Below are positions 14,784 through 56,486 of a DNA stretch of 59,571 nt, one piece after another. Numbering within the stretch: the first letter of the stretch is position 1; the number at the start of each line of letters is the position of its first letter. The translations under genes were made by a program, and so were the position numbers. The notes under the pieces are model-generated. The model did no database searches and had not been told where the DNA came from. It saw nothing but the letters and a program-made list of their open reading frames with translations. Location: NCBI GenBank assembly GCA_963733195.1, contig CAVTCR010000011.1:1-59571 (forward strand), written 5' to 3'. This stretch comes from an uncultured delta proteobacterium. GTDB lineage: Bacteria; Desulfobacterota; Binatia; Bin18.

Positions 14784-14949
14784 GGTCAAGTCCCTCGGTT
14801 CCTGTAAACCGAGTTAGGCAGCAGACGCGGCACTTCGGCGGGATGGGGTATGAATTGCTAGTTCGTCCATACTCACTTCCTGTTCGTCCAGCTTGAGGCG
14901 TTCACGTAAGCTACGAATCTGTTGTTGCTCAAACTCACTAAAACACTTC

Positions 14950-15927
14950 GGCTCATGTAACTGATCTGTGCTGGGTAACAAGCCGAGCGATAAATGCGGG
15001 ACTGATGCGTTTGAGATTGATTTTATGTTCACACATGGCCAGATAGCCGTGCAGATATTTTTTGTGGACGCCCCGAAACGGGCGCAGGAAATTGCGTGCG
15101 CTCGTCCACAAGCCTTCAATAGTGTTGGTATGGACCTCCCGGATGCCATCGCCATCATCATCCCGTGCCCATTCTTTCTGGCCGTGACACACCGTGTGGT
15201 GGATCCCGCTTGATGCTGTTGTAGCCTTGCCACTCATCCGTATAACAGGTGGTGTCTTTCTGGGTGTAGCCGTGCACGTGTTTCTGCAACGTCTTCCCAT
15301 CGGTATGCTGGCACACGCGCAACCGGCACTGGCCACTTTCTCGACCGACGGTCCCCACCACGGGCGGGCGATCATTCTCATAGGTGCCGTGCCCTCGTCG
15401 CTTGTTCGCGCGGCGGCGCGGCGGATCGCCGGGTCGCAGTGTTTGTCGCCTTTTTTCCCCCGCGTTCTGAAACATCTCATCGGTTTCTGTCTCGGCGTCC
15501 GGCAACGCCCGGGAGCTTAACATTGTATACCCGTTGGCTTGGAGCCGTTTGCGCCACCGATGCACACATTGGCGCGAGAGCGAGAGTTCTTCAGCTAACA
15601 CCGTCGCCGGTTCGCCTTTGCAAATCCCGCGGACTAACAACACCACACGGCGCGGCGTCTAGATTGCTGCCCGCAAAGAGCGTGCCCGTATAGAGGTTAT
15701 AGGTCCGTTGACAGTGGTGACAGCGGTAATCGACAAAGCCGCGCTTGTGCTGACGAAACTCACGCGCTTCTTCGCGTGTGACGCTCCACAGCCTGGGCAG
15801 CGCAGTCCTTTGGGGTGAAAGTGTTTCTCGACCCACAGCCAGACTTTCCTGCTCATCGAGTAGCTCGGTTATAGGAAAAATCATTGTCCTCTTTTACCAT
15901 AGAACGCACAGATTGATTACATGAGCC
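14950..15927 (-). mobile_element. IS1595-family insertion sequence
   Basis: IRs GGCTCATGTAAnnnATCTGTGC at both ends; direct repeat AAACACTTC at 14941-14949 and 15928-15936. Confidence 0.9.
14953..15884 (-). CDS. IS1595-family transposase (several frameshifts)
   Basis: Zn ribbon CPGC...CHHC, ETDE, YTDEWQGY, HTNTIEGLW, FRGVHKKYL spread over frames. Confidence 0.8.
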
Positions 15928-21478: not shown

Positions 21479-21574
21479 GGAGGAGGATGGGGCCCGGTGG
21501 CCCCACCGGTCTTCAAAACCGAGTTGCGTGGCGTAACGTTGCGCGGATGGTTCGACTCCATCCCTTCTCCGCCA
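21479..21574 (+). tRNA. selC: tRNA-Sec (anticodon UCA)
   Basis: 8-bp acceptor stem GGAGGAGG/CCTTCTCC, long D stem, CGGT-CTTCAAA-ACCG anticodon arm, long variable arm, GGTTCGACTCC, GCCA end; next to selA. Confidence 0.95.
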
Positions 21575-21632: not shown

Positions 21633-23025
21633 CTACGGCTTCGGAACTAACTCTTCAGCCGTAAAAATTCCGCGCAGATCAAGCAGAAACGCCCCGTCAT
21701 GAATCCGCCCAAGGATCGGCGGGTCAGAGGTGCGGAAACGAGTGGCGATTTTTTCGGCCGAAAGTTGCGGGTGACGAATAACAATCGCTCGGCTCGGTAT
21801 GTCCTCTTCTGGCAGCGTCCCACTGCCAATCTGTGCTTTTGTGTCTTCAACGGTAATCACAAATCCGTCACCGAGTCGCTGCTTGCAAGCAGCGGAACAA
21901 TCTGTGCTGCTATCGTGTCCATTTCTTCTTGCGAACGCGTGAGCCAACGGAGTGTCGGTAACGCAGCCATCAAATCGGGCGCACGACGATACAAGCGTAA
22001 CGTCGCACTCAGTGCCGCAAGCGTCAGCTTTCCGACTCGCAATGCCCGTTTGAAGTGGATTTTTTTTGATGCGGGTAATGAATTCTTTGCGTCCAACAAT
22101 AATTCCTGCTTGTGGTCCGCCTAACAATTTGTCACCACTAAATGTGACTACATCGGCTCCCATTGCTACGCGCTCGGCAACCACGAGCTCTCTAGGTAAG
22201 CCCATAGACTGAGAAGTCAATCAACGCACCTGCTCCGAGATCTTCCATCACCGGAATCTGATGTTGACGACCAAGTGCGACCAATTCTGCAAGCTCAACC
22301 GCACTGCTAAAGCCAATGATGCGATAGTTACTCGGATGTACTTTCAATAAGACCCCAGTTTGAGGGGTGAGGGCTTCGGCATAATCGGCTATCCGAGTGC
22401 GGTTCGTTGTTCCTACCTCGCGCAGCATCACGCCACTCTTGCGCATGACATCAGGAATACGAAAGGAACCGCCAATCTCGATCAGTTCACCACGCGAGAC
22501 GATTCCTTCTTTCCCTTCGGCGAGCGAGTTCAGTGCGAGAAGAACCGCAGCTGCGTTATTGTTCACGACTGTAACTGCTTCGGCTCCAGTCAGAGCGAGC
22601 AAGTCTTCTGTGACCACATCATCGCGATCCCCACGCCCTGCTTCACTCAAGTCGTACTCAAGAGTCACCGGGGAACTGCCGACACGGACTATTTCGTCAA
22701 GCGCCGCTTTCGCCAAGAGCGCACGACCTAAATTAGTGTGCAGTACCGTGCCGGTGGCATTAACGACCGACCGTAACGGCGAACGATCTTCTTGGGCAAT
22801 GGCATTCGCAACGAGACCTGCGATCTCACTTTCATGGATACCTACCGTAGAGGTCTGCGAGTGGATCTCTTGTCGCAAAGAGGCAAGCGTAGAACGGACT
22901 TTCTCGGTCACATAGGAACGGTTGTATCTCTGTAACAGGTGACTTAGAGTAGGCGCAGATAAGAGTTTTTCAACCGATGGGAGTGCACGCAATTGCGCCT
23001 GTATGGCTTCCTGGTTTCGTTCCAT
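21633..23025 (-). CDS. selA: L-seryl-tRNA(Sec) selenium transferase (frameshifts)
   Basis: NATGTVLHTNLGRA, VNNNAAA, SRGELIEIGGSFRIP, EVGTTNRT, FSGDKLLGGPQAG. Confidence 0.95.
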
Positions 23026-23104
23026 GGCGGCAGCAGCTTGGCATAGGGGTTCAGGGCTTGCAACTGCATAAGAGTGAAGGTCCTTTGCGTCCTTAGGAGG
23101 GGAT

Positions 23105-24206
23105 ATGGCGACTTCAACAGAACAATATCGAACATCCATTGAACAGCAGGAGGAGAAAATCGCTCATTTTCTTAGGACCTTTGAGGCGCTGCAAGAAAAG
23201 ATTCACTTTGTCAAAATCCGCCAGAATAAAGAAGAACTCTTCGATGCCGTTGGTGATCTGTTTCCTCCAATAAATGCCGAGTTCGAGAATCTCACGCCAC
23301 CAAGTGGCATGGAATCGTTTCATCAGCAGTGGAAGGAGGCGCTTGAGCAATTGGAAGACGCGTATACGTCGTTCCTGACCGGTTCTGAATCCAACTTCAT
23401 GACAGCATATTTTCAAAGCCGCCGTGCGTTTTCACAAGGGAAATATCAATTGTATGGAATGCGTACCCAACTCCCGACGCTGCATAAGTATTGGGTACTT
23501 CCCGAAGCGGTTGCACGTTTAGCCGACCTTAGAAACGCCGATCAGCGGTAACCAAGCTGCGACTGGGGTCATGCATCGTGCCGCTTCAGATGACCATGGC
23601 GAATACTCTCTATACGTCCCGGAAAACTATGACCCCAGCCGACGCTGGCCGATGATTATCGCCTTGCATGGCGGGCACGGACGTGGAGACGATTATCTCT
23701 TGACGTGGCTTCGACCGGCCAAAAGCAAAGGCTATGTCGTGCTTTCTCCCAAATCACTGGGAAACACGTGGTCCCTGATGCAGCCGAGTATCGACATTCG
23801 CTCTATCCTTACGATGGTCGAAGAACTGCTTGATGAGTATGCGATCGATACTGGGCGACTTTTTGCCTCTGGTCTCTCCGACGGTGGGACGTTTAGTTAC
23901 GCGATTGGGCTTCATTGCCCAAAACTTTTTGCCGGGATTGCTCCCATCGCTGCAGCCGGGGTGTTTCCTCAATGGCTTGAGTCTCCCGACGCGAAACGCT
24001 TACCGATGTACATTGTCCACGGCGGACAAGACTTCATCTTTCCCGTGCCCATGGCTCGGGCAACCCATAACCAGTTGATCGAAAACGATTTTGTCAATGT
24101 CACTTATAAAGAACTTCCCGAGTGGGGACATGCCTACACATATTCGATTAACGAAACGCTGGTCTTACCGTGGTTTGAGAGCCTGCCCTCACGACTACCG
24201 GAATAG
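23105..24206 (+). CDS. Alpha/beta hydrolase (phospholipase/esterase-like) with N-terminal helical domain; frameshift near 23540
   Basis: ALHGGHG, GLSDGG nucleophile elbow, HGGQD, WGH. Confidence 0.75.
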
Positions 24207-25900: not shown

Positions 25901-27729
25901 ATGTGTGGTATCATTGGTTACATCGGTCATCGTGAAGCGGCCCCGGTCCTTCTCCAAGGATTGAAGCGACTTGAGTATCGTGGGTACGACTCTGCTGGTG
26001 TTGCAGTCTTTAATCGGAAAAATCGAAGTGCGCCGTTCGGTTGGTAAGCTGACTAATCTTGATCAATTATTACGCGAGAGTCCTGTTCACGGTGTCATCG
26101 GTATGGGCCATACGCGATGGGCCACACATGGTCGCCCGTCGGAGGCAAATGCGCATCCGCATCGCGCTGGGAAGATCGTCGTTATTCATAACGGTATCAT
26201 CGAGAACTATTTAGAGTTACGCCACGAACTGACGGCAAAAGGGCGGATCTTCAATTCCGAAACCGATACCGAAGTTATTTCCCATCTGATCGACGAGTAT
26301 ATCACAGAAGGGCTCACGTTTACGCACGCCACTCGTGCGGCTCTACAACGGCTTGAAGGTGCATTTTCTATCGTCACGCTATGTGAAGATGAACCTGGCA
26401 AAATCCTTGCCGCAAAGAATGCCACTCCCATCGTCATCGGTCTCGGGGAGGGAGAGAACTTCGTCGCCTCTGACGTTCCTGCCTGTCCTCGATTACACGC
26501 GCAAAGTGGCGTTTCTCGATGACGGTGAAATGGCGGAAATCACGCGCGATAGTGTCGACATTACCGATTTCCATGGTCGTCCGATCGAGCGCGCACCACG
26601 CCAGATCACCTGGGATACACTGACTGCGCAAAAAGGTGGGTACAAACATTTCCTGCTTAAAGAGATTCATGAACAGCCACAGGCGATTATCGATACCATG
26701 CGTGGTCGGTTGCTCGTGAATGACGGAGAAGTCTCTCTTGGTGAGTTAGAAGAACATACTGCGCTGCTCGACTCGGTCAAGCGTATTATGCTCGTGGCGT
26801 GTGGTACCGCGTGGCATGCGTGTCTGGTTGGAAAGTTTTTCCTGGAAGAACTGGCACGTATTCCGGCAGAGGTCGATTACGGAAGTGAGTTTCGTTATCG
26901 CCGCTCGCCGCTGGATGCAGGAACGTTAGTCCTCGCCGTATCCCAGTCAGGTGAGACAGCCGATACCCTTGCTGCACTTGAGGGCGGGAGAGCCTGCGGA
27001 GCAAAGACACTGGCGATTTGTAACGTTGTTGATGCGTCGATTCCGCGCAAGGCTGATATGACGATTTACACACATGCTGGGCCTGAGATCAGTGTTGCCT
27101 CAACCAAAGCATTCACTACCCAGGTCACTGCGCTGTATTTGCTTGCGATCTATTTAGGACGTCGGCGCGGAGTGCTCGATCAGCAAACCAGCAGCAAATT
27201 GATCGAAGACCTTGTTAACCTTCCGCATCAAGTGCAAGAAGTACTGAAGAGAGAGAAACAGATAGAGAAAATCGCTAAAAAATACGGGCAAGCTAAAGAT
27301 TTTCTCTTTCTTGGTCGTGGCGTGAATTATCCTATCGCCCTCGAAGGGGCACTCAAGCTGAAAGAAATCTCCTACATTCATGCCGAGGGGTATCCGGCTG
27401 GAGAGATGAAGCACGGTCCTATCGCACTCATCGATGAAGAGATGCCAGTGGTTGTCCTGCTGCCGAAAGATCCAGTCTATGCCAAGACTCTGAGTAATAT
27501 GAAGGAAGTTGAGGCCCGTAGTGGACGCATTATCGCCATCACCGATACCCCTTCGCCGGAGTTAGAAGAAATCGCTTGGGAAATCATCCAGACTCCGAGC
27601 ACGAACCATTTGTTAATGCCGATTCTCCTCACGATCCCACAGCAACTCTTGGCCTACCACATTGCGGTTTATCGTGGCACTGATGTCGATCAACCCCGGA
27701 ACCTCGCGAAGAGCGTGACCGTGGAATAA
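25901..27729 (+). CDS. glmS: Glutamine--fructose-6-phosphate transaminase (frameshifts)
   Basis: MCGIIGY start, [25 protein letters not shown]-terminal [11 protein letters not shown]. Confidence 0.95.
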
Positions 27730-51291: not shown

Positions 51292-53192
51292 ATGTCCGTG
51301 CATACAACAGTCAGGGTAGGTATCACCCTTGCTTTGGGGCTTGCCTTGTCAGGAGTCACATCACAGGCGTGGGCTGCTGCACCGGTAGTCGGAGCTGACG
51401 GCGCCAAAGTCTATGAGCAACGCTGTGCGCAGTTGCCATAATGGCCAGGTTGCTCGCGCGCCGAAATTTGAATTCCTTAAAGTGCGGAACACCAGAGTCT
51501 ATCGTCGATTCGCTCGAAAACGGGGTGATGAAATTCATCGGCTTGGCAATGTCAGACCCAGACCGAAAAGCTGTCGCTGAATTCATTGCTGGAAAACCCA
51601 TCGCTGGGGAAGACGTCTTAAAAGACACTACTGCTAATCTCTGCCCACAAGCACCGGGGGAGTTTACTCCTTCCGACAAAGACCCGCAGTGGAACGGTTG
51701 GGGAGTCACACTCGACAATGCCCGCTTTCAACCCGCCGAACATGCCGGACTTGAAAGCCGAGCAGGTTCCCAATCTCAAACTCAAATGGGCGTTTGGTTT
51801 TGCGCCCAATTCCGTTGCCTCGCAGCCAACCGTCGTTGGTGGGCGCATTTTTATCGGCACGATGCGCGGGCAAATCTATTCGCTCGATGCCACAACTGGC
51901 TGCGTGTATTGGGCAAAAAAAATCCGCGCGGGTATGCGCAGTACCATCACCATCGCGCGCACTCCCCAAGACGAACCCACCAAAGTATGTCGCGTACTTT
52001 GGTGACCTCGCTGCCAATGTCCATGCCCTTGATGCGCAGACGGGTAAAACATTATGGACGGTCAAAGTCGACAAACATCCGCTCGCACGTGTCACTGGTG
52101 CTCCCAAGTTTCATGAGAATCGCTTGTACGTGCCCGTCACCTCGCTCGAAGAAGCTGGCGGCGGCGAGGCCACCTATCAGTGCTGTACCTTCCGCGGCAA
52201 CGTCGTCGCGTTAAATGCCACCACTGGCAAACAAATCTGGAAGACGTACACGATTCAGAAGAAACTGAGACCGACCTGGAAAAATGCCAAAGGCGTCCAG
52301 CAATACGGACCGGCAGGTGCAGGCGTGTGGGCGTCACCGACATTGGACCCAGAACGTGGAGTACTGTATGTCACTACAGGTGACGACTACGCGGACCCCC
52401 CCTCAAACGCCAGTGACGCGATCATCGCGATGAGCATGAAAACCGGCAAAATCCAATGGATTACGCAGTGCCTGAAGGGGGATGCCTTCAATATCGCGTG
52501 TACGGCAGCCGATAAAACCAACTGTCCGAAAGCCAATGGTCCGGATTTAGATTTCGGCTCTTCGCCGATTCTTCGGATTATTGACGGGAAGCGCGTCGTG
52601 TTGGCCGGACAAAAATCCGGCATGCTGCACGCTGTTGATGCCGACAATAAGGGCAAATTCCTCTGGCAGAAGCGTGTTGGTAAAGGCGGGCTGATCGGTG
52701 GCATTCAGTGGGGACCAGCCGCCGACAGTAATCAGATCTATGTTGCCTTGTCTGATATTGGCGTAAAGCTCGTCGAAGACCCCGACGTCGGCTCGAAGTC
52801 TGAACTCGACAGTACGGTCGGTGGTGGCATGTTTGCTTACAGCATCGCCAACGGCGAGAAGACATGGGAAACCCCACCGCCAGGTTGCGGCGATCGCAAA
52901 AATTGCAGCCCTGCGCAGTCTGCCGCAGTGTCGGTCATTCCCGGTGCGGTGTTCTCCGGCTCAGTTGACGGGCATATGCGTGCCTATGGAACCGAAGATG
53001 GAAAGATCATCTGGGACTTTGATGCAGCTCAAAGAGTTCAAAACGGTGAACGGTGTTCCAGCCAACGGCGGCTCATTTGACGGCGCTGGACCAACCGTCG
53101 TGAACGGCGTTCTTTACACCTACTCTGGATACGGCATGTGGGGCGGCCAGCCAGGGAACGTGTTGTTAGCGTTTTCGGTGGATGGGAAATAA
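51292..53192 (+). CDS. Secreted quinohemoprotein, polyvinyl-alcohol-dehydrogenase-like (cytochrome c plus PQQ propeller; several frameshifts)
   Basis: Signal peptide; CxxCH across an indel near 51430; LKLKWAFGF, YQCCTFRG, GPDLDFGSSP, GQKSG, GGIQWG. Confidence 0.85.
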
Positions 53193-53282: not shown

Positions 53283-53906
53283 TTAAGGTAGATGCTTCAC
53301 CCCCTCTTCCAGCCGCTCTTCGAGTTTCTCCACCTTACTCGGGTCCAGCTTTGTTCGTTGCGCAAGAATTTTTCCCCACGAGTCACCCTCATAGCGCTGG
53401 AACCGCTCTGGATTCCACAGTTCGGCACGCTTGAATGAACGCGGGCAGTGGAAGTAACACTCTTCCACTTTGATTTCGATCGCCATCTGCGCCGGGCGAC
53501 CACGAGCACTCAGCTTATCCAAAAGCACAGGATCATCGACGATTTTCGCCCAACCATTGATGCGCATGGTCCATTCTTCGCCAGGGATCAGACAGAGCAA
53601 GCCGACGTGGGGGTTCTCAAGGATGTTGTTGACTCCCTGGAACATCTTGTTACCTGGACGATCGGGGAGATACACCGTTCGTTCGTCAGCAATATAGATG
53701 AATCCTGGTGGGTCTCCCTTGGGCGAAGCATCACACCGTCCCTGTGCATCCGCCGTCGCAACGATGACAAATGGACACTGCGCAAGAAATCGCGCTGCGG
53801 CTTCATCTATGTAGGGGAGCTTATGCTTGACTGTTAAATCATCAGGCGCACCAAAGCGTTCACAAAGATCTGCCGTGGTTCGTGGAGTCTCGTGTTCTGT
53901 ACTCAT
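53283..53906 (-). CDS. Pyridoxamine-5'-phosphate-oxidase-like FMN-binding protein (MSMEG_1061-like)
   Basis: DASPKGDPPGF, PDRPGN, NPHVGLL, ECYFHCPRSFKRAELW. Confidence 0.85.
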   Translation of the reverse strand: MSTEHETPRTTADLCERFGAPDDLTVKHKLPYIDEAAARFLAQCPFVIVATADAQGRCDASPKGDPPGFIYIADERTVYLPDRPGNKMFQGVNNILENPHVGLLCLIPGEEWTMRINGWAKIVDDPVLLDKLSARGRPAQMAIEIKVEECYFHCPRSFKRAELWNPERFQRYEGDSWGKILAQRTKLDPSKVEKLEERLEEGVKHLP

Positions 53907-53976
53907 TTTTCAGCCCTCGATACTTATTTGGACTACTTTCGTATTTACTCTGAGTGCAGTAAGAATTGCCCCAACT

Positions 53977-54426
53977 ATGCGGTTTCTCATCCTCCACGTC
54001 AACAGCTTCTGCTGCACGATCACCGAAAAGGGGCGGTCGAAGGTGTATGAACCGTATGACAATCCGGTAACCCGAGTTGAAGACGCGCTCGTTGTGCTCT
54101 CTAGTATCGAGAAGGGTGACGAGAACAATCCTATGTTAGTGGCTCAACGCGCAGGCGCAGAAATCAGCAAGTTAGCAACGCAGCTCAAAGTCACGACTGT
54201 TGTCCTCCACCCGTTTGCGCATCTCTTCGCTGAGCTGGGCCCACCAGAATTCGCGATTGATATATTGAGCCGTACCCAACAAGCACTGATGGCTACCGGC
54301 TTACTGACCCTTCGGACTCCGTTTGGTTGGTTTAATACATTGCAAATTGATGCGAAGGGGCATCCGTTGTCGCGCGTGGCGCGAATCGTGACGGCAGACA
54401 GAGAAAGCGTGAAACGTAGAGTATAG
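53977..54426 (+). CDS. Stand-alone archaeal-type threonyl-tRNA synthetase editing domain protein
   Basis: MRFLILH, IEKGDE, HPFAHL, PFGW, KGHPLS motifs. Confidence 0.85.
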   Translation: MRFLILHVNSFCCTITEKGRSKVYEPYDNPVTRVEDALVVLSSIEKGDENNPMLVAQRAGAEISKLATQLKVTTVVLHPFAHLFAELGPPEFAIDILSRTQQALMATGLLTLRTPFGWFNTLQIDAKGHPLSRVARIVTADRESVKRRV

Positions 54427-54559: not shown

Positions 54560-55429
54560 ATGAACGAAAAACTCTCAAGCCTCTGGAACAAGCAGCATCC
54601 ATTGTGAAAACGGTATCTCCTCGGCCTAACCACGTCAACAACCGACAATGCTCCAATGGCGTTTCTGCGTGAAGTGATTCGGCGTGGTACGAAACAGCTT
54701 CGGCTCGTGACGCTGACGGGAGGCGGACTGAACGCTGACCTGATGATTGGCGCAGGTGTTGTCGCCGAATACGAAACCTGTTCGTGTGTCCTCGGTCCGT
54801 ATGGTCCCGCGCCAAACTTCCAATATGCGTTACGTGCGGGGCTGATGAAGATGAAAGATACCACTTGAGGGGTGCTGTATAGCATGATCCAGGCTGGATC
54901 TATGGGCATTCCGTTTCTCGGGGTACGTGGTCTCCTCTACAGTGACATCCTCAAACATCGTCCTGATCTCTTAGTACAAGACAACCCGTTTCATCCAGGC
55001 GAACCAGTTGTTGTCGCCCAATCGATTCGTCCGGATGTTGCTGTCTTTCATGCGCTGAAAGCTGATCGCTGGGGGAATGCAGTGACCCCGGGACGCCGCG
55101 ACGATCTGATGATGGCTCGCGCTGCGCGACGGGTCGTGGTAACCGCCGAAGAAATTATCGATGGTGAACTCACACGCAAAGATGCTGTCGACGACACGTT
55201 TCTTCCGGCAATAGATGTTGATGCTGTCGCCCACGTCCCCCTTGGAGCCCATCCGTGCGGCTTCGGGGCACTGTACGAGCGAGACGAAGATCACTGGCGC
55301 GAATATCTCGAAGCAGCGAAGAGCGAGACAACTTTCCGTACCTACCTTGAACGGTATGTGTATGGCGTGCGAAGTCATGCAGAATATTTGGAACGAGTGG
55401 ACCACTTGCGAACGTGGAATGCAGAATGA
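54560..55429 (+). CDS. Family I CoA-transferase alpha subunit (GctA-like), probable selenoprotein (TGA at 54866-54868); 5' indels
   Basis: PMAFLREVIRRG, DLMIGAG, MKDTT-TGA-GVLYSMIQAGSMGIPF in one frame, PDVAVFHA..ADRWGN, VVVTAEEI. Confidence 0.8.
54883..54904 (+). promoter_or_regulatory. Candidate bacterial SECIS element
   Basis: CAT-GATCCA-GGC-TGGATC-T-ATG hairpin; G-initiated apical loop starts 23 nt after the in-frame UGA. Confidence 0.6.
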
Positions 55430-55565
55430 TGAACGCTGAATGGAAAATAGTAGCCAGCACAAGAACCAATGAAGAATTAAGAGTTAAGAATAGGTTAAAA
55501 GAGAGCACCTTGTTTAGTGTATTGTCTTTTTTAGTTCTTCACTCTTCATTTTTAATTCTTCATTG
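55417..55565. repeat. Paired heptamer tandem arrays in inverted orientation
   Basis: (AATGCAG/AATGATG/AATGAAG)n ... (TTCTTCA/CTCTTCA)n between the CoA-transferase subunits. Confidence 0.65.
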
Positions 55566-55588
55566 AGTTCTCCTCTGACTTCTTTGTT

Positions 55589-56329
55589 ATGGACCAGTCG
55601 ATTCTTTACACTCCCGAAGAACTCATGGCGGTAACCATCGCCCGCGAAGTGTGCGACTTCGAGACGGTCGGTGTCGGCGCGGTATCCCCGATTCCTGCTG
55701 CTGGCTGCATTCTCGCAGAACAACTGCATGCTCCACATATCACGCTCATCATTCTTGATAGTGAGGAGTATTACCCCTTCCCTGCTGGCAGTAGCGAACT
55801 CCATTTCATGGCTCAGCGTGGCGAGCTAGATTTGTTTTTCTTGAGCGGTATTCAAATCGACCGTCGCGGAAATTTCAATCTGCATGTGATCGGTGATTAC
55901 AACGCACCGACTGTGAGAATGGCAGGAGCATACGGTTCAGCGATGCTTTACTACATGGCACATCGAGTCATCCTCTTTCGTGATCAGCACACGAAACGCG
56001 TTTTTGTAGAGAAAGTCGATTTCGTCACTGGAGCCGGGGTAACACCAGAGAATGTCTATCGTGAAGGCGGACCAGCATTGGTTATTACGCCGAAAGCTGT
56101 GCTCGGTTGGGACAAAACCGTCGGGGAGTGGACGCTCGATAGATTCCAACCGGGGTCGTCGGTGGAAGACGTGCAAGATAATACCGGCTTTGAGCTGCGA
56201 GTATCACCGTCGGTTCACCTGAACCCAGCGCCAACAGCAGAAGAGCTGCGAATGCTGCGAACAGTAGTGAAAGAGAAAATGATGCGGAGTTATCCGGAGT
56301 TTGTGAAGGAAAAGATCGTGAACATGTAA
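55589..56329 (+). CDS. Family I CoA-transferase beta subunit (GctB-like)
   Basis: YTPEELMAVTIARE, FFLSGIQIDRRGNFN, GAYGS, RVFVEKVDFVT, VQDNTGF, PTAEELRMLR. Confidence 0.85.
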   Translation: MDQSILYTPEELMAVTIAREVCDFETVGVGAVSPIPAAGCILAEQLHAPHITLIILDSEEYYPFPAGSSELHFMAQRGELDLFFLSGIQIDRRGNFNLHVIGDYNAPTVRMAGAYGSAMLYYMAHRVILFRDQHTKRVFVEKVDFVTGAGVTPENVYREGGPALVITPKAVLGWDKTVGEWTLDRFQPGSSVEDVQDNTGFELRVSPSVHLNPAPTAEELRMLRTVVKEKMMRSYPEFVKEKIVNM

Positions 56330-56486
56330 CACGCAGCACACAATACGTAAAACGTGAAACGTGTTGCGTAACCGCCCATCATTCCCTTACGTTTTACGCA
56401 TTACGATTTAAGTATTCCGTCCGAGGTCTTCCCAAATGGTGTGGAAATAGCATCAGACACGATGCTCTTGGATGATGGTTTTTGCT

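Follow-up and report, generated by a model that had tools for sequence, protein, structure and literature searches.

A predicted selenocysteine codon in the alpha subunit gene of a CoA-transferase-fold enzyme family of uncultured Binatia-like and Syntrophales-like bacteria

The window analyzed in this study is a stretch of 59,571 nucleotides from an uncultured delta proteobacterium, and it carries on the forward strand a pair of genes for the two subunits of a CoA-transferase-fold enzyme. The alpha subunit gene, with a GctA-like fold, occupies 54560..55429 with one UGA read through; its true start is the ATG at 54560 and its own terminator is a TGA. The beta subunit gene lies at 55589..56329 and has the sequence LIILDSEE at the site of the catalytic Glu of GctB. 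Within the alpha gene, the open reading frames 54656..54868 and 54872..55429 share a common frame and are separated solely by the TGA at 54866..54868 on the same strand, the predicted UGA selenocysteine codon, which is TGA in all orthologous loci and TGT in one metagenome locus (L056). The alpha subunit is readable across this codon as ...KMKDTT-U-GVLYSMIQAG, the read-through sequence being ...KMKDTT-U-GVLYSMIQAGSMGIPF... When the two halves were joined, they matched the Pfam family CoA_trans (PF01144) with an E value of 3.3e-14 over profile positions 33-214 of 217, and the beta open reading frame matched the same family with an E value of 1e-16, so that both subunits have the PF01144 fold of the family I CoA transferases. 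The first-pass annotation had read the two alpha frames as one continuous subunit over the TGA, which is borne out by the common frame and the joint match. A search of the alpha subunit against NCBIfam gave only weak, sub-threshold matches to 3-oxoacid CoA-transferase subunit A.

The genes for selenocysteine insertion are all present in this genome. The tRNA-Sec (anticodon TCA) at 21479..21574 on the forward strand and selA at 21633..23139 on the reverse strand, both already expected in the window from the earlier reading, were located there, selA falling into two or more frames in the assembly. Moreover, selB and an adjoining selD are found on contig C81 of the same genome, and this selD contains a TGA of its own. 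SelA was detected in 16 of the 16 TGA-bearing genomes among 41 relatives (own genome included), a co-occurrence which discriminates little because 39 of the 41 relatives pass the cut-off overall.

The present copy of the alpha gene is disturbed at its 5' end. In comparison to four orthologues, it has two additional nucleotides near 54572-54576 and two losses of one nucleotide each near 54607-54616, and these indels bring a second, spurious TGA (54605-54607) into frame; the assembly therefore gives the N-terminus as MNEKLSSLWNKQHPL-TGA, against the conserved M..KL.PLEQAASIVK.G.LLGLTTS of the orthologues. The selA gene likewise exceeds two orthologues of the same genus by about four bases. The first-pass annotation mentions neither the alpha 5' indels nor those of selA. 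It may be argued from these observations that the selenoprotein family is genuine, whereas the copy in this genome, and maybe its Sec system also, is decaying, the alpha 5' indels and the selA frameshifts being real mutations. Three indels within 45 nt and a selA that is broken here yet intact in 38 of 40 relatives speak for such a pseudogene, and still we consider it unlikely. In glmS (25971-27729) the GATase part is likewise separated from the SIS part, and a PQQ-repeat gene is split as well. This pattern is more in keeping with indel errors spread throughout the assembly than with decay of particular genes. Beyond the 5' end, some 270 alpha codons remain open, as does the entire beta gene, with 84-87% identity to orthologues of the same genus, and contigs of relatives insert 2 nt at 54607-54616 and thereby restore the alpha frame. 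The indels of the window are thus, as judged from these comparisons, very probably assembly errors.

The TGA itself is conserved at this column in every orthologue examined, amounting to 41 distinct Sec-form sequences after removal of duplicates (the 37 of the synonymous-site set described below together with L045-L048), and the carriers are Binatia-like, Syntrophales-like and other metagenome-assembled genomes. The codon among orthologues is TGA, never TAA or TAG, it is always in frame, and no conserved restart follows it. In the GTDB family of the window, 17 matches at E<=1e-40 were obtained from the 41 genomes searched (own genome included); 16 of 16 family loci, with 71-100% identity, have exactly one TGA each at the same column, and the 17th match, with 38% identity, is without TGA. 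Contigs taken from one genome per species gave TGA in 15 of 15 loci with identity down to 61%, and these are labelled as Candidatus Binatia, Deltaproteobacteria, Methylomirabilota, Thermodesulfobacteriota and Syntrophaceae genomes. Evenly sampled across the phylum, 401 genomes were searched with a Cys form (P0025) at a cut-off of E<=1e-60, and all 13 matching genomes have the TGA; one of them (L038) has an extra TAA within the match, and four of the 13 constitute a divergent clade with the motif [DE]HS-U-P. Among metagenome loci matching P0025, TGA was found in 14 of 15 and TGT in the remaining one, L056. At the read level, the best public run covers 0.26 of the words of the window, the one RNA run (X23) yielded no coverage, and the overlay was made with contigs of close relatives; such contigs from two public runs span 54866-54868, with no difference among those listed. 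Since public gene calls split these genes at the TGA, the alpha family is systematically mis-annotated, and fragments of 168-193 aa starting after the TGA form the majority of its top 120 database homologues.

A bSECIS-like hairpin is present at 54883..54904 on the forward strand with the sequence CAUGAUCCA-GGC-UGGAUC-U-AUG. It was derived as a consensus structure from 34 distinct sequences and has a lower stem of 3 bp (54883-85/54902-04), a bulged U at 54901, an upper stem of 6 bp (54886-91/54895-900) and a GGC loop (54892-94) beginning 23 nt past the UGA, in agreement with the bulged U, the G-initiated loop and the distance given in the first-pass annotation. The coding sequence is constrained here beyond the needs of the protein. 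In a set of 37 distinct sequences, the codons at +7 to +10 were GTC in 27 of 27, CAG in 37 of 37, GCT in 36 of 36 and GGA in 36 of 37 cases; elsewhere in the 240-nt stretch, Val, Gln, Ala and Gly are each encoded by 2-4 codons, and flanking 4-fold sites show 3-4. The Cys form L056 encodes MVQAG by GTA CAA GCA GGA for these residues, and no hairpin is formed. In case of the divergent clade, a hairpin of 6-8 bp with loop GGC stands at the identical distance from the UGA with different stem letters, and compensatory changes are seen at two of the six pairs. Pair 22-34 is found in five forms (GU, AU, CG, UA, UG) and pair 26-30 in two (AU, GC), and 99.1% of the cells of the alignment are paired. 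The covariation score of 0.162, to be read as the contribution of four sequences from one divergent clade with the hairpin mostly invariant elsewhere, compares to a shuffled mean of 0.075 and is reached by 0 of 500 shuffles, and all slid controls gave <=0.071. The folding energy of the window hairpin is not significant (z -1.37; 13 of 200 shuffles fold equally well or better), and an Rfam search over 54700-55100 gave no matching family, with two snoRNA matches at chance level.

The Sec column is occupied by Cys in the full-length homologues P0018, P0025 and P0114, which are 51-59% identical. A set of 153 more distant representatives was compiled from these three and the top 150 of the 50%-identity representatives retrieved with P0025, and in this set Cys (48) and Glu (44) were the most frequent residues, followed by Asn (15), Gly (12), His (7), Gln (3) and others (14), while 10 fragments begin past the column. 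The D-x-T-C-P type motif, which the first-pass annotation had given for related alpha subunits, is present in the distant homologues, for example as 'DATCPAI' and 'DSTCPAL', and tabulation of the column has yielded the TGA/Cys pairs predicted by a Sec reading. A FastTree tree was built from 130 of the 153 representatives (240-345 aa) and 36 Sec forms, the alpha subunit of the window being omitted on account of the break at its 5' end. The 36 Sec forms and 27 Cys forms, and nothing else, make up a group of 63 rows that has a local SH-like support of 99, and at least three switches between Sec and Cys are indicated on this tree. The Cys-type members carry the source name 'CoA transferase subunit A' only. 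A genetic code with TGA reassigned to Trp or Gly was also considered and rejected, because homologues carry Cys at the column and the alpha gene itself terminates with TGA.

From these findings, TGA 54866-54868 is read as the selenocysteine codon of a CoA-transferase-fold alpha subunit with a probability of roughly 0.85. The decoding of this UGA as Sec, which was the central claim of the earlier reading, is supported by the TGA/Cys pairing, by the constraint on a SECIS hairpin that is conserved and covaries, and by the Sec machinery of the genome; the insertion of selenocysteine itself we infer from the conservation, the SECIS element and the machinery.

The structural context of the Sec column was obtained from an ungapped alignment to solved relatives anchored on x-G-x8-A-x4-[LIV]-P-F, which places Gln in 1poi_A, Glu in 6co6_A and 6con_A, Ala in the variant 6coj_A and Gly in 5mzw_A at this position. 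Gln99 of SCOT presumably corresponds to the alpha Sec column. This Gln99 is among the residues around CoA (PMC12817287). The Gln or Asn lining the thioester is not found at the alpha column of the family, Sec standing there instead; the paralogues L003 and L004 have Asn. The Glu of IpdA at the same column is presumably the proposed catalytic base Glu105 of IpdAB, and its replacement by Ala in 6COJ lends support to Sec/Cys as a possible alternative catalytic residue, an idea that the earlier reading had put forward speculatively.

In the beta subunit, LIILDSEE aligns with the catalytic stretch IIVESG of GctB (1poi_B). An alignment of 32 rows, three of them paralogues, has shown IIL-[D/G]-[S/C]-x at the Glu site of the 29 orthologous betas, and the catalytic Glu (GctB Glu54, E-x-G) is absent from all 29, which agrees with the initial observation of a beta subunit without a GctB-type Glu. 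Two canonical family I features are therefore missing, and the family resembles the repurposed members of the fold, Sec/Cys being the presumed new functional residue. Asp in IILD[S/C] is found in the window beta and in a large number of the Binatia-like orthologues, and this Asp, at or adjoining the Glu site, could still be a carboxylate of the predicted active site. On the other hand, Gly replaces Asp in 13 of the 29 orthologous betas, namely in the Syntrophales-like and divergent clades, so the beta carboxylate is not conserved.

These alignments also bear on a canonical family I CoA transferase, in which Sec/Cys would merely replace the pocket Gln/Asn and another carboxylate (beta Asp57) would carry the CoA. 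It would account for PF01144 in both subunits, for GctA as the best solved relative (E 6e-30) and for the Asp of the window and of many Binatia-like betas, but we regard it as improbable: the Asp gives way to Gly as noted above, and a costly Sec is seldom retained at a merely structural site. Among the readable pairs, moreover, beta TEDG accompanies alpha Asn in L003 and beta Gly accompanies alpha Glu in L002 and L020, L003 and L002 being paralogues of this genome and L020 coming from another genome. A true stop at the TGA, with alpha made as two polypeptides or broken by a nonsense or sequencing error, would explain why gene callers split alpha and why post-TGA fragments prevail among its best homologues, but it is hardly credible against 41 distinct sequences with always a TGA, in frame and without conserved restart, Cys at the column in homologues, frozen synonymous sites downstream of the codon and contigs of relatives from two runs that bridge it with no difference among those listed. 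Hence the alpha subunit is best regarded as a predicted selenoprotein whose Sec is likely a catalytic residue, and the enzyme is probably not a canonical CoA transferase.

The gene neighborhoods vary by lineage, with no consistent operon and no clue to the substrate. The window and L023 have a gene for a stand-alone tRNA-Thr_ED protein upstream, a divergent MFS transporter is found at L024, L025, L030 and L031, and a PLP-dependent (PALP) gene lies immediately 3' of beta in L016 and L017. In 10 distinct Syntrophales-like loci, a CoA-disulfide-reductase/NADH-oxidase-like (CoADR-like) gene is convergent downstream and has its own in-frame TGA (VSYSA-U-AVPYY); this family is a listed selenoprotein in the table of a 2026 review. 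A close orthologue of the CoADR-like Sec gene was not found in the genome of the window, where the best match has 29% identity, and the gene is thus not an obligate partner.

As the most likely mechanism, SelB and tRNA-Sec would decode the UGA under the direction of the hairpin, which lies 17-38 nt downstream, so that a single alpha chain of ~290 residues would be made and would pair with the product of the neighboring beta gene; such pairing of alpha and beta subunits is textbook knowledge for the CoA-transferase fold. The Sec, or Cys in relatives, would then be placed at the alpha position facing the acyl-CoA thioester, where true transferases have Gln/Asn and IpdAB has the Glu that was mutated, and it would act, as nucleophile or as acid/base, in a reaction other than transfer that takes place on a CoA thioester or CoA thiol. 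Further, it can be speculated, tentatively and with considerable doubt, that in the heterodimer the lone alpha Sec, and not a Glu, attacks a CoA thioester or a CoA disulfide/persulfide to form an acyl-selenoester or Se-S-CoA intermediate, and that in Syntrophales-like members the CoADR-like Sec gene cooperates. If this were true, selenium chemistry would operate in acyl-CoA/CoA-thiol metabolism, outside the classic redox enzymes, and the enzyme would represent a new selenoenzyme class.

To our knowledge, almost all of the bacterial selenoenzymes described so far are oxidoreductases. A literature search combining selenocysteine or selenoprotein with CoA transferase found no report, and the main text and family table of the 2026 review contain no CoA transferase, PF01144 or IpdA, in accordance with the earlier statement that CoA transferases are outside the classic selenoprotein families. 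No CoA transferase is named in the main-text portions of the BSepDB, deep-Sep and Olavius symbiont papers that entered this comparison. A widespread Sec/Cys clade within the CoA-transferase fold, in which Sec holds the putative catalytic column and the beta Glu is missing, points to an uncharacterized CoA-ester reaction in soil and sediment bacteria (Binatia-like and Syntrophales-like), and the occurrence of Cys/Sec, Glu and Gln/Asn at one column offers a natural experiment on the switching of chemistry in a single fold.

Among solved enzymes, the best relative is GctAB of Acidaminococcus fermentans (PDB 1POI), with E values of 6e-30 for alpha and 3e-26 for beta. The alpha-beta gene order is identical, whereas GctA has Gln at the Sec column and GctB has its Glu54 in IIVESG in place of IIL-[D/G]-[S/C]. 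IpdAB (PDB 6CO6, 6CO9, 6COJ and 6CON), the COCHEA-CoA ring-cleaving hydrolase of steroid catabolism, has the same two-subunit family I fold and is matched with E values of 2e-18 (alpha) and 1e-13 (beta) at only ~25-30% identity. Both families lack a conserved beta Glu (Gly57 in IpdB, G or D in the Sec family), and both have a functional side chain at the alpha column, in IpdAB the E of 6co6_A that is A in 6coj_A. They differ in that this side chain is Glu in IpdAB and Sec/Cys in the Sec family, and the lineages are different. Gly57 of IpdB replaces Glu54 of GctB, and IpdAB is without CoA-transfer activity, as given in the relevant parts of PMC5380842. Steroid-catabolic neighbors were found at none of the examined loci, where the neighbors are MFS transporters, tRNA-Thr_ED, CoADR-like, PALP and other genes.

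AibA/AibB, the 3-methylglutaconyl-CoA decarboxylase of Myxococcus xanthus (PDB 5MZW-5N03), is another case of a CoA-transferase fold with a non-transfer reaction, and its alpha subunit is matched with an E value of 2e-20. In the relevant parts of PMC7756340, Cys56B is described to replace the catalytic Glu and is proposed as a general acid. This Cys lies in the beta subunit with Gly at the AibA column, whereas the Sec family has its Cys/Sec in alpha; the beta Glu position holds Asp or Gly here, and some orthologues have a Cys one residue later. With SelB-type selenoprotein genes, the family has in common the in-frame UGA, the Cys homologues and the selA, selB, selD and tRNA-Sec genes, and its hairpin, which we take to be similar to that of E. 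coli fdhF, has a bulged U, a G-rich apical loop and a fixed distance downstream of the UGA; the difference is that the host protein here is a CoA-transferase-fold enzyme. The Sec CoA-transferase-fold family is hence a variant in both respects, as a selenoprotein and as a repurposed fold.

The window contains several genes that are distributed over more than one reading frame. The selA gene on the minus strand (21633-23139) occupies at least two frames and carries about four surplus bases in comparison to two same-genus orthologues, and selA was found to be unbroken in 38 of 40 relatives. The glmS gene (25971-27729, plus strand) is apparently split by a frameshift, its GATase part (25971-26522) and SIS part (26335-27729) lying in overlapping open reading frames. 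A PQQ-repeat beta-propeller gene on the plus strand (51794-53192) carries on in a second, overlapping frame at 52821-53192, which is probably another frameshift. Taken together, these three genes suggest numerous indel errors in the assembly. Fragments of an IS1595-family transposase were also observed on the minus strand at 14814-15646, scattered across three overlapping frames.

Immediately upstream of the alpha gene, a tRNA-Thr_ED protein, the stand-alone archaeal-type editing domain of threonyl-tRNA synthetase, is encoded on the plus strand (53827-54426); the same gene precedes the alpha gene at the related locus L023, and at another, L061, a YbaK-type tRNA_edit gene lies close by. The alpha-beta unit has one copy of a 14-nt direct repeat, AAA[G/A]CGTGAAACGT, on each side (54404-54417 and 56349-56362). 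The signal is weak: across the window the core motif is present four times, where 1.08 copies would be expected. Downstream of the beta gene there is also a 14-nt inverted repeat (56342-56402). The two genes are separated by an AT-rich spacer of 159 nt (55430-55588) containing an imperfect inverted repeat. In several other lineages the alpha and beta genes overlap or almost touch. The contig of one relative has 5 additional bases at 55491-55493.

Two close orthologues, L025 and L034, belong to MAG records entitled 'uncultured Enterobacteriaceae bacterium'. These titles look like mislabels, because one of the two matches G003, a genome of the window's own GTDB family, identically around the TGA.

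Elsewhere in the window's own genome, selB is followed directly by selD on a second contig (C81:169448-172166); this selD has one in-frame TGA and is a selenocysteine-containing SelD. The stop of the beta gene coincides with, or directly adjoins, the start of a PLP-dependent gene of the PALP family in two genomes that share a genus (L016:3102-3752 and L017:3007-3750), and the arrangement looks operonic. At 10 distinct Syntrophales-like loci, a convergent CoA-disulfide-reductase/NADH-oxidase-like gene lies just 3' of the alpha-beta pair; the loci are L033 (5636-6988, minus strand), L029 (5834-7204, minus strand) and eight others. No close orthologue of this selenocysteine gene was found in the window's genome. 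It has an in-frame TGA of its own (VSYSA-U-AVPYY), and its family is a catalogued selenoprotein family.
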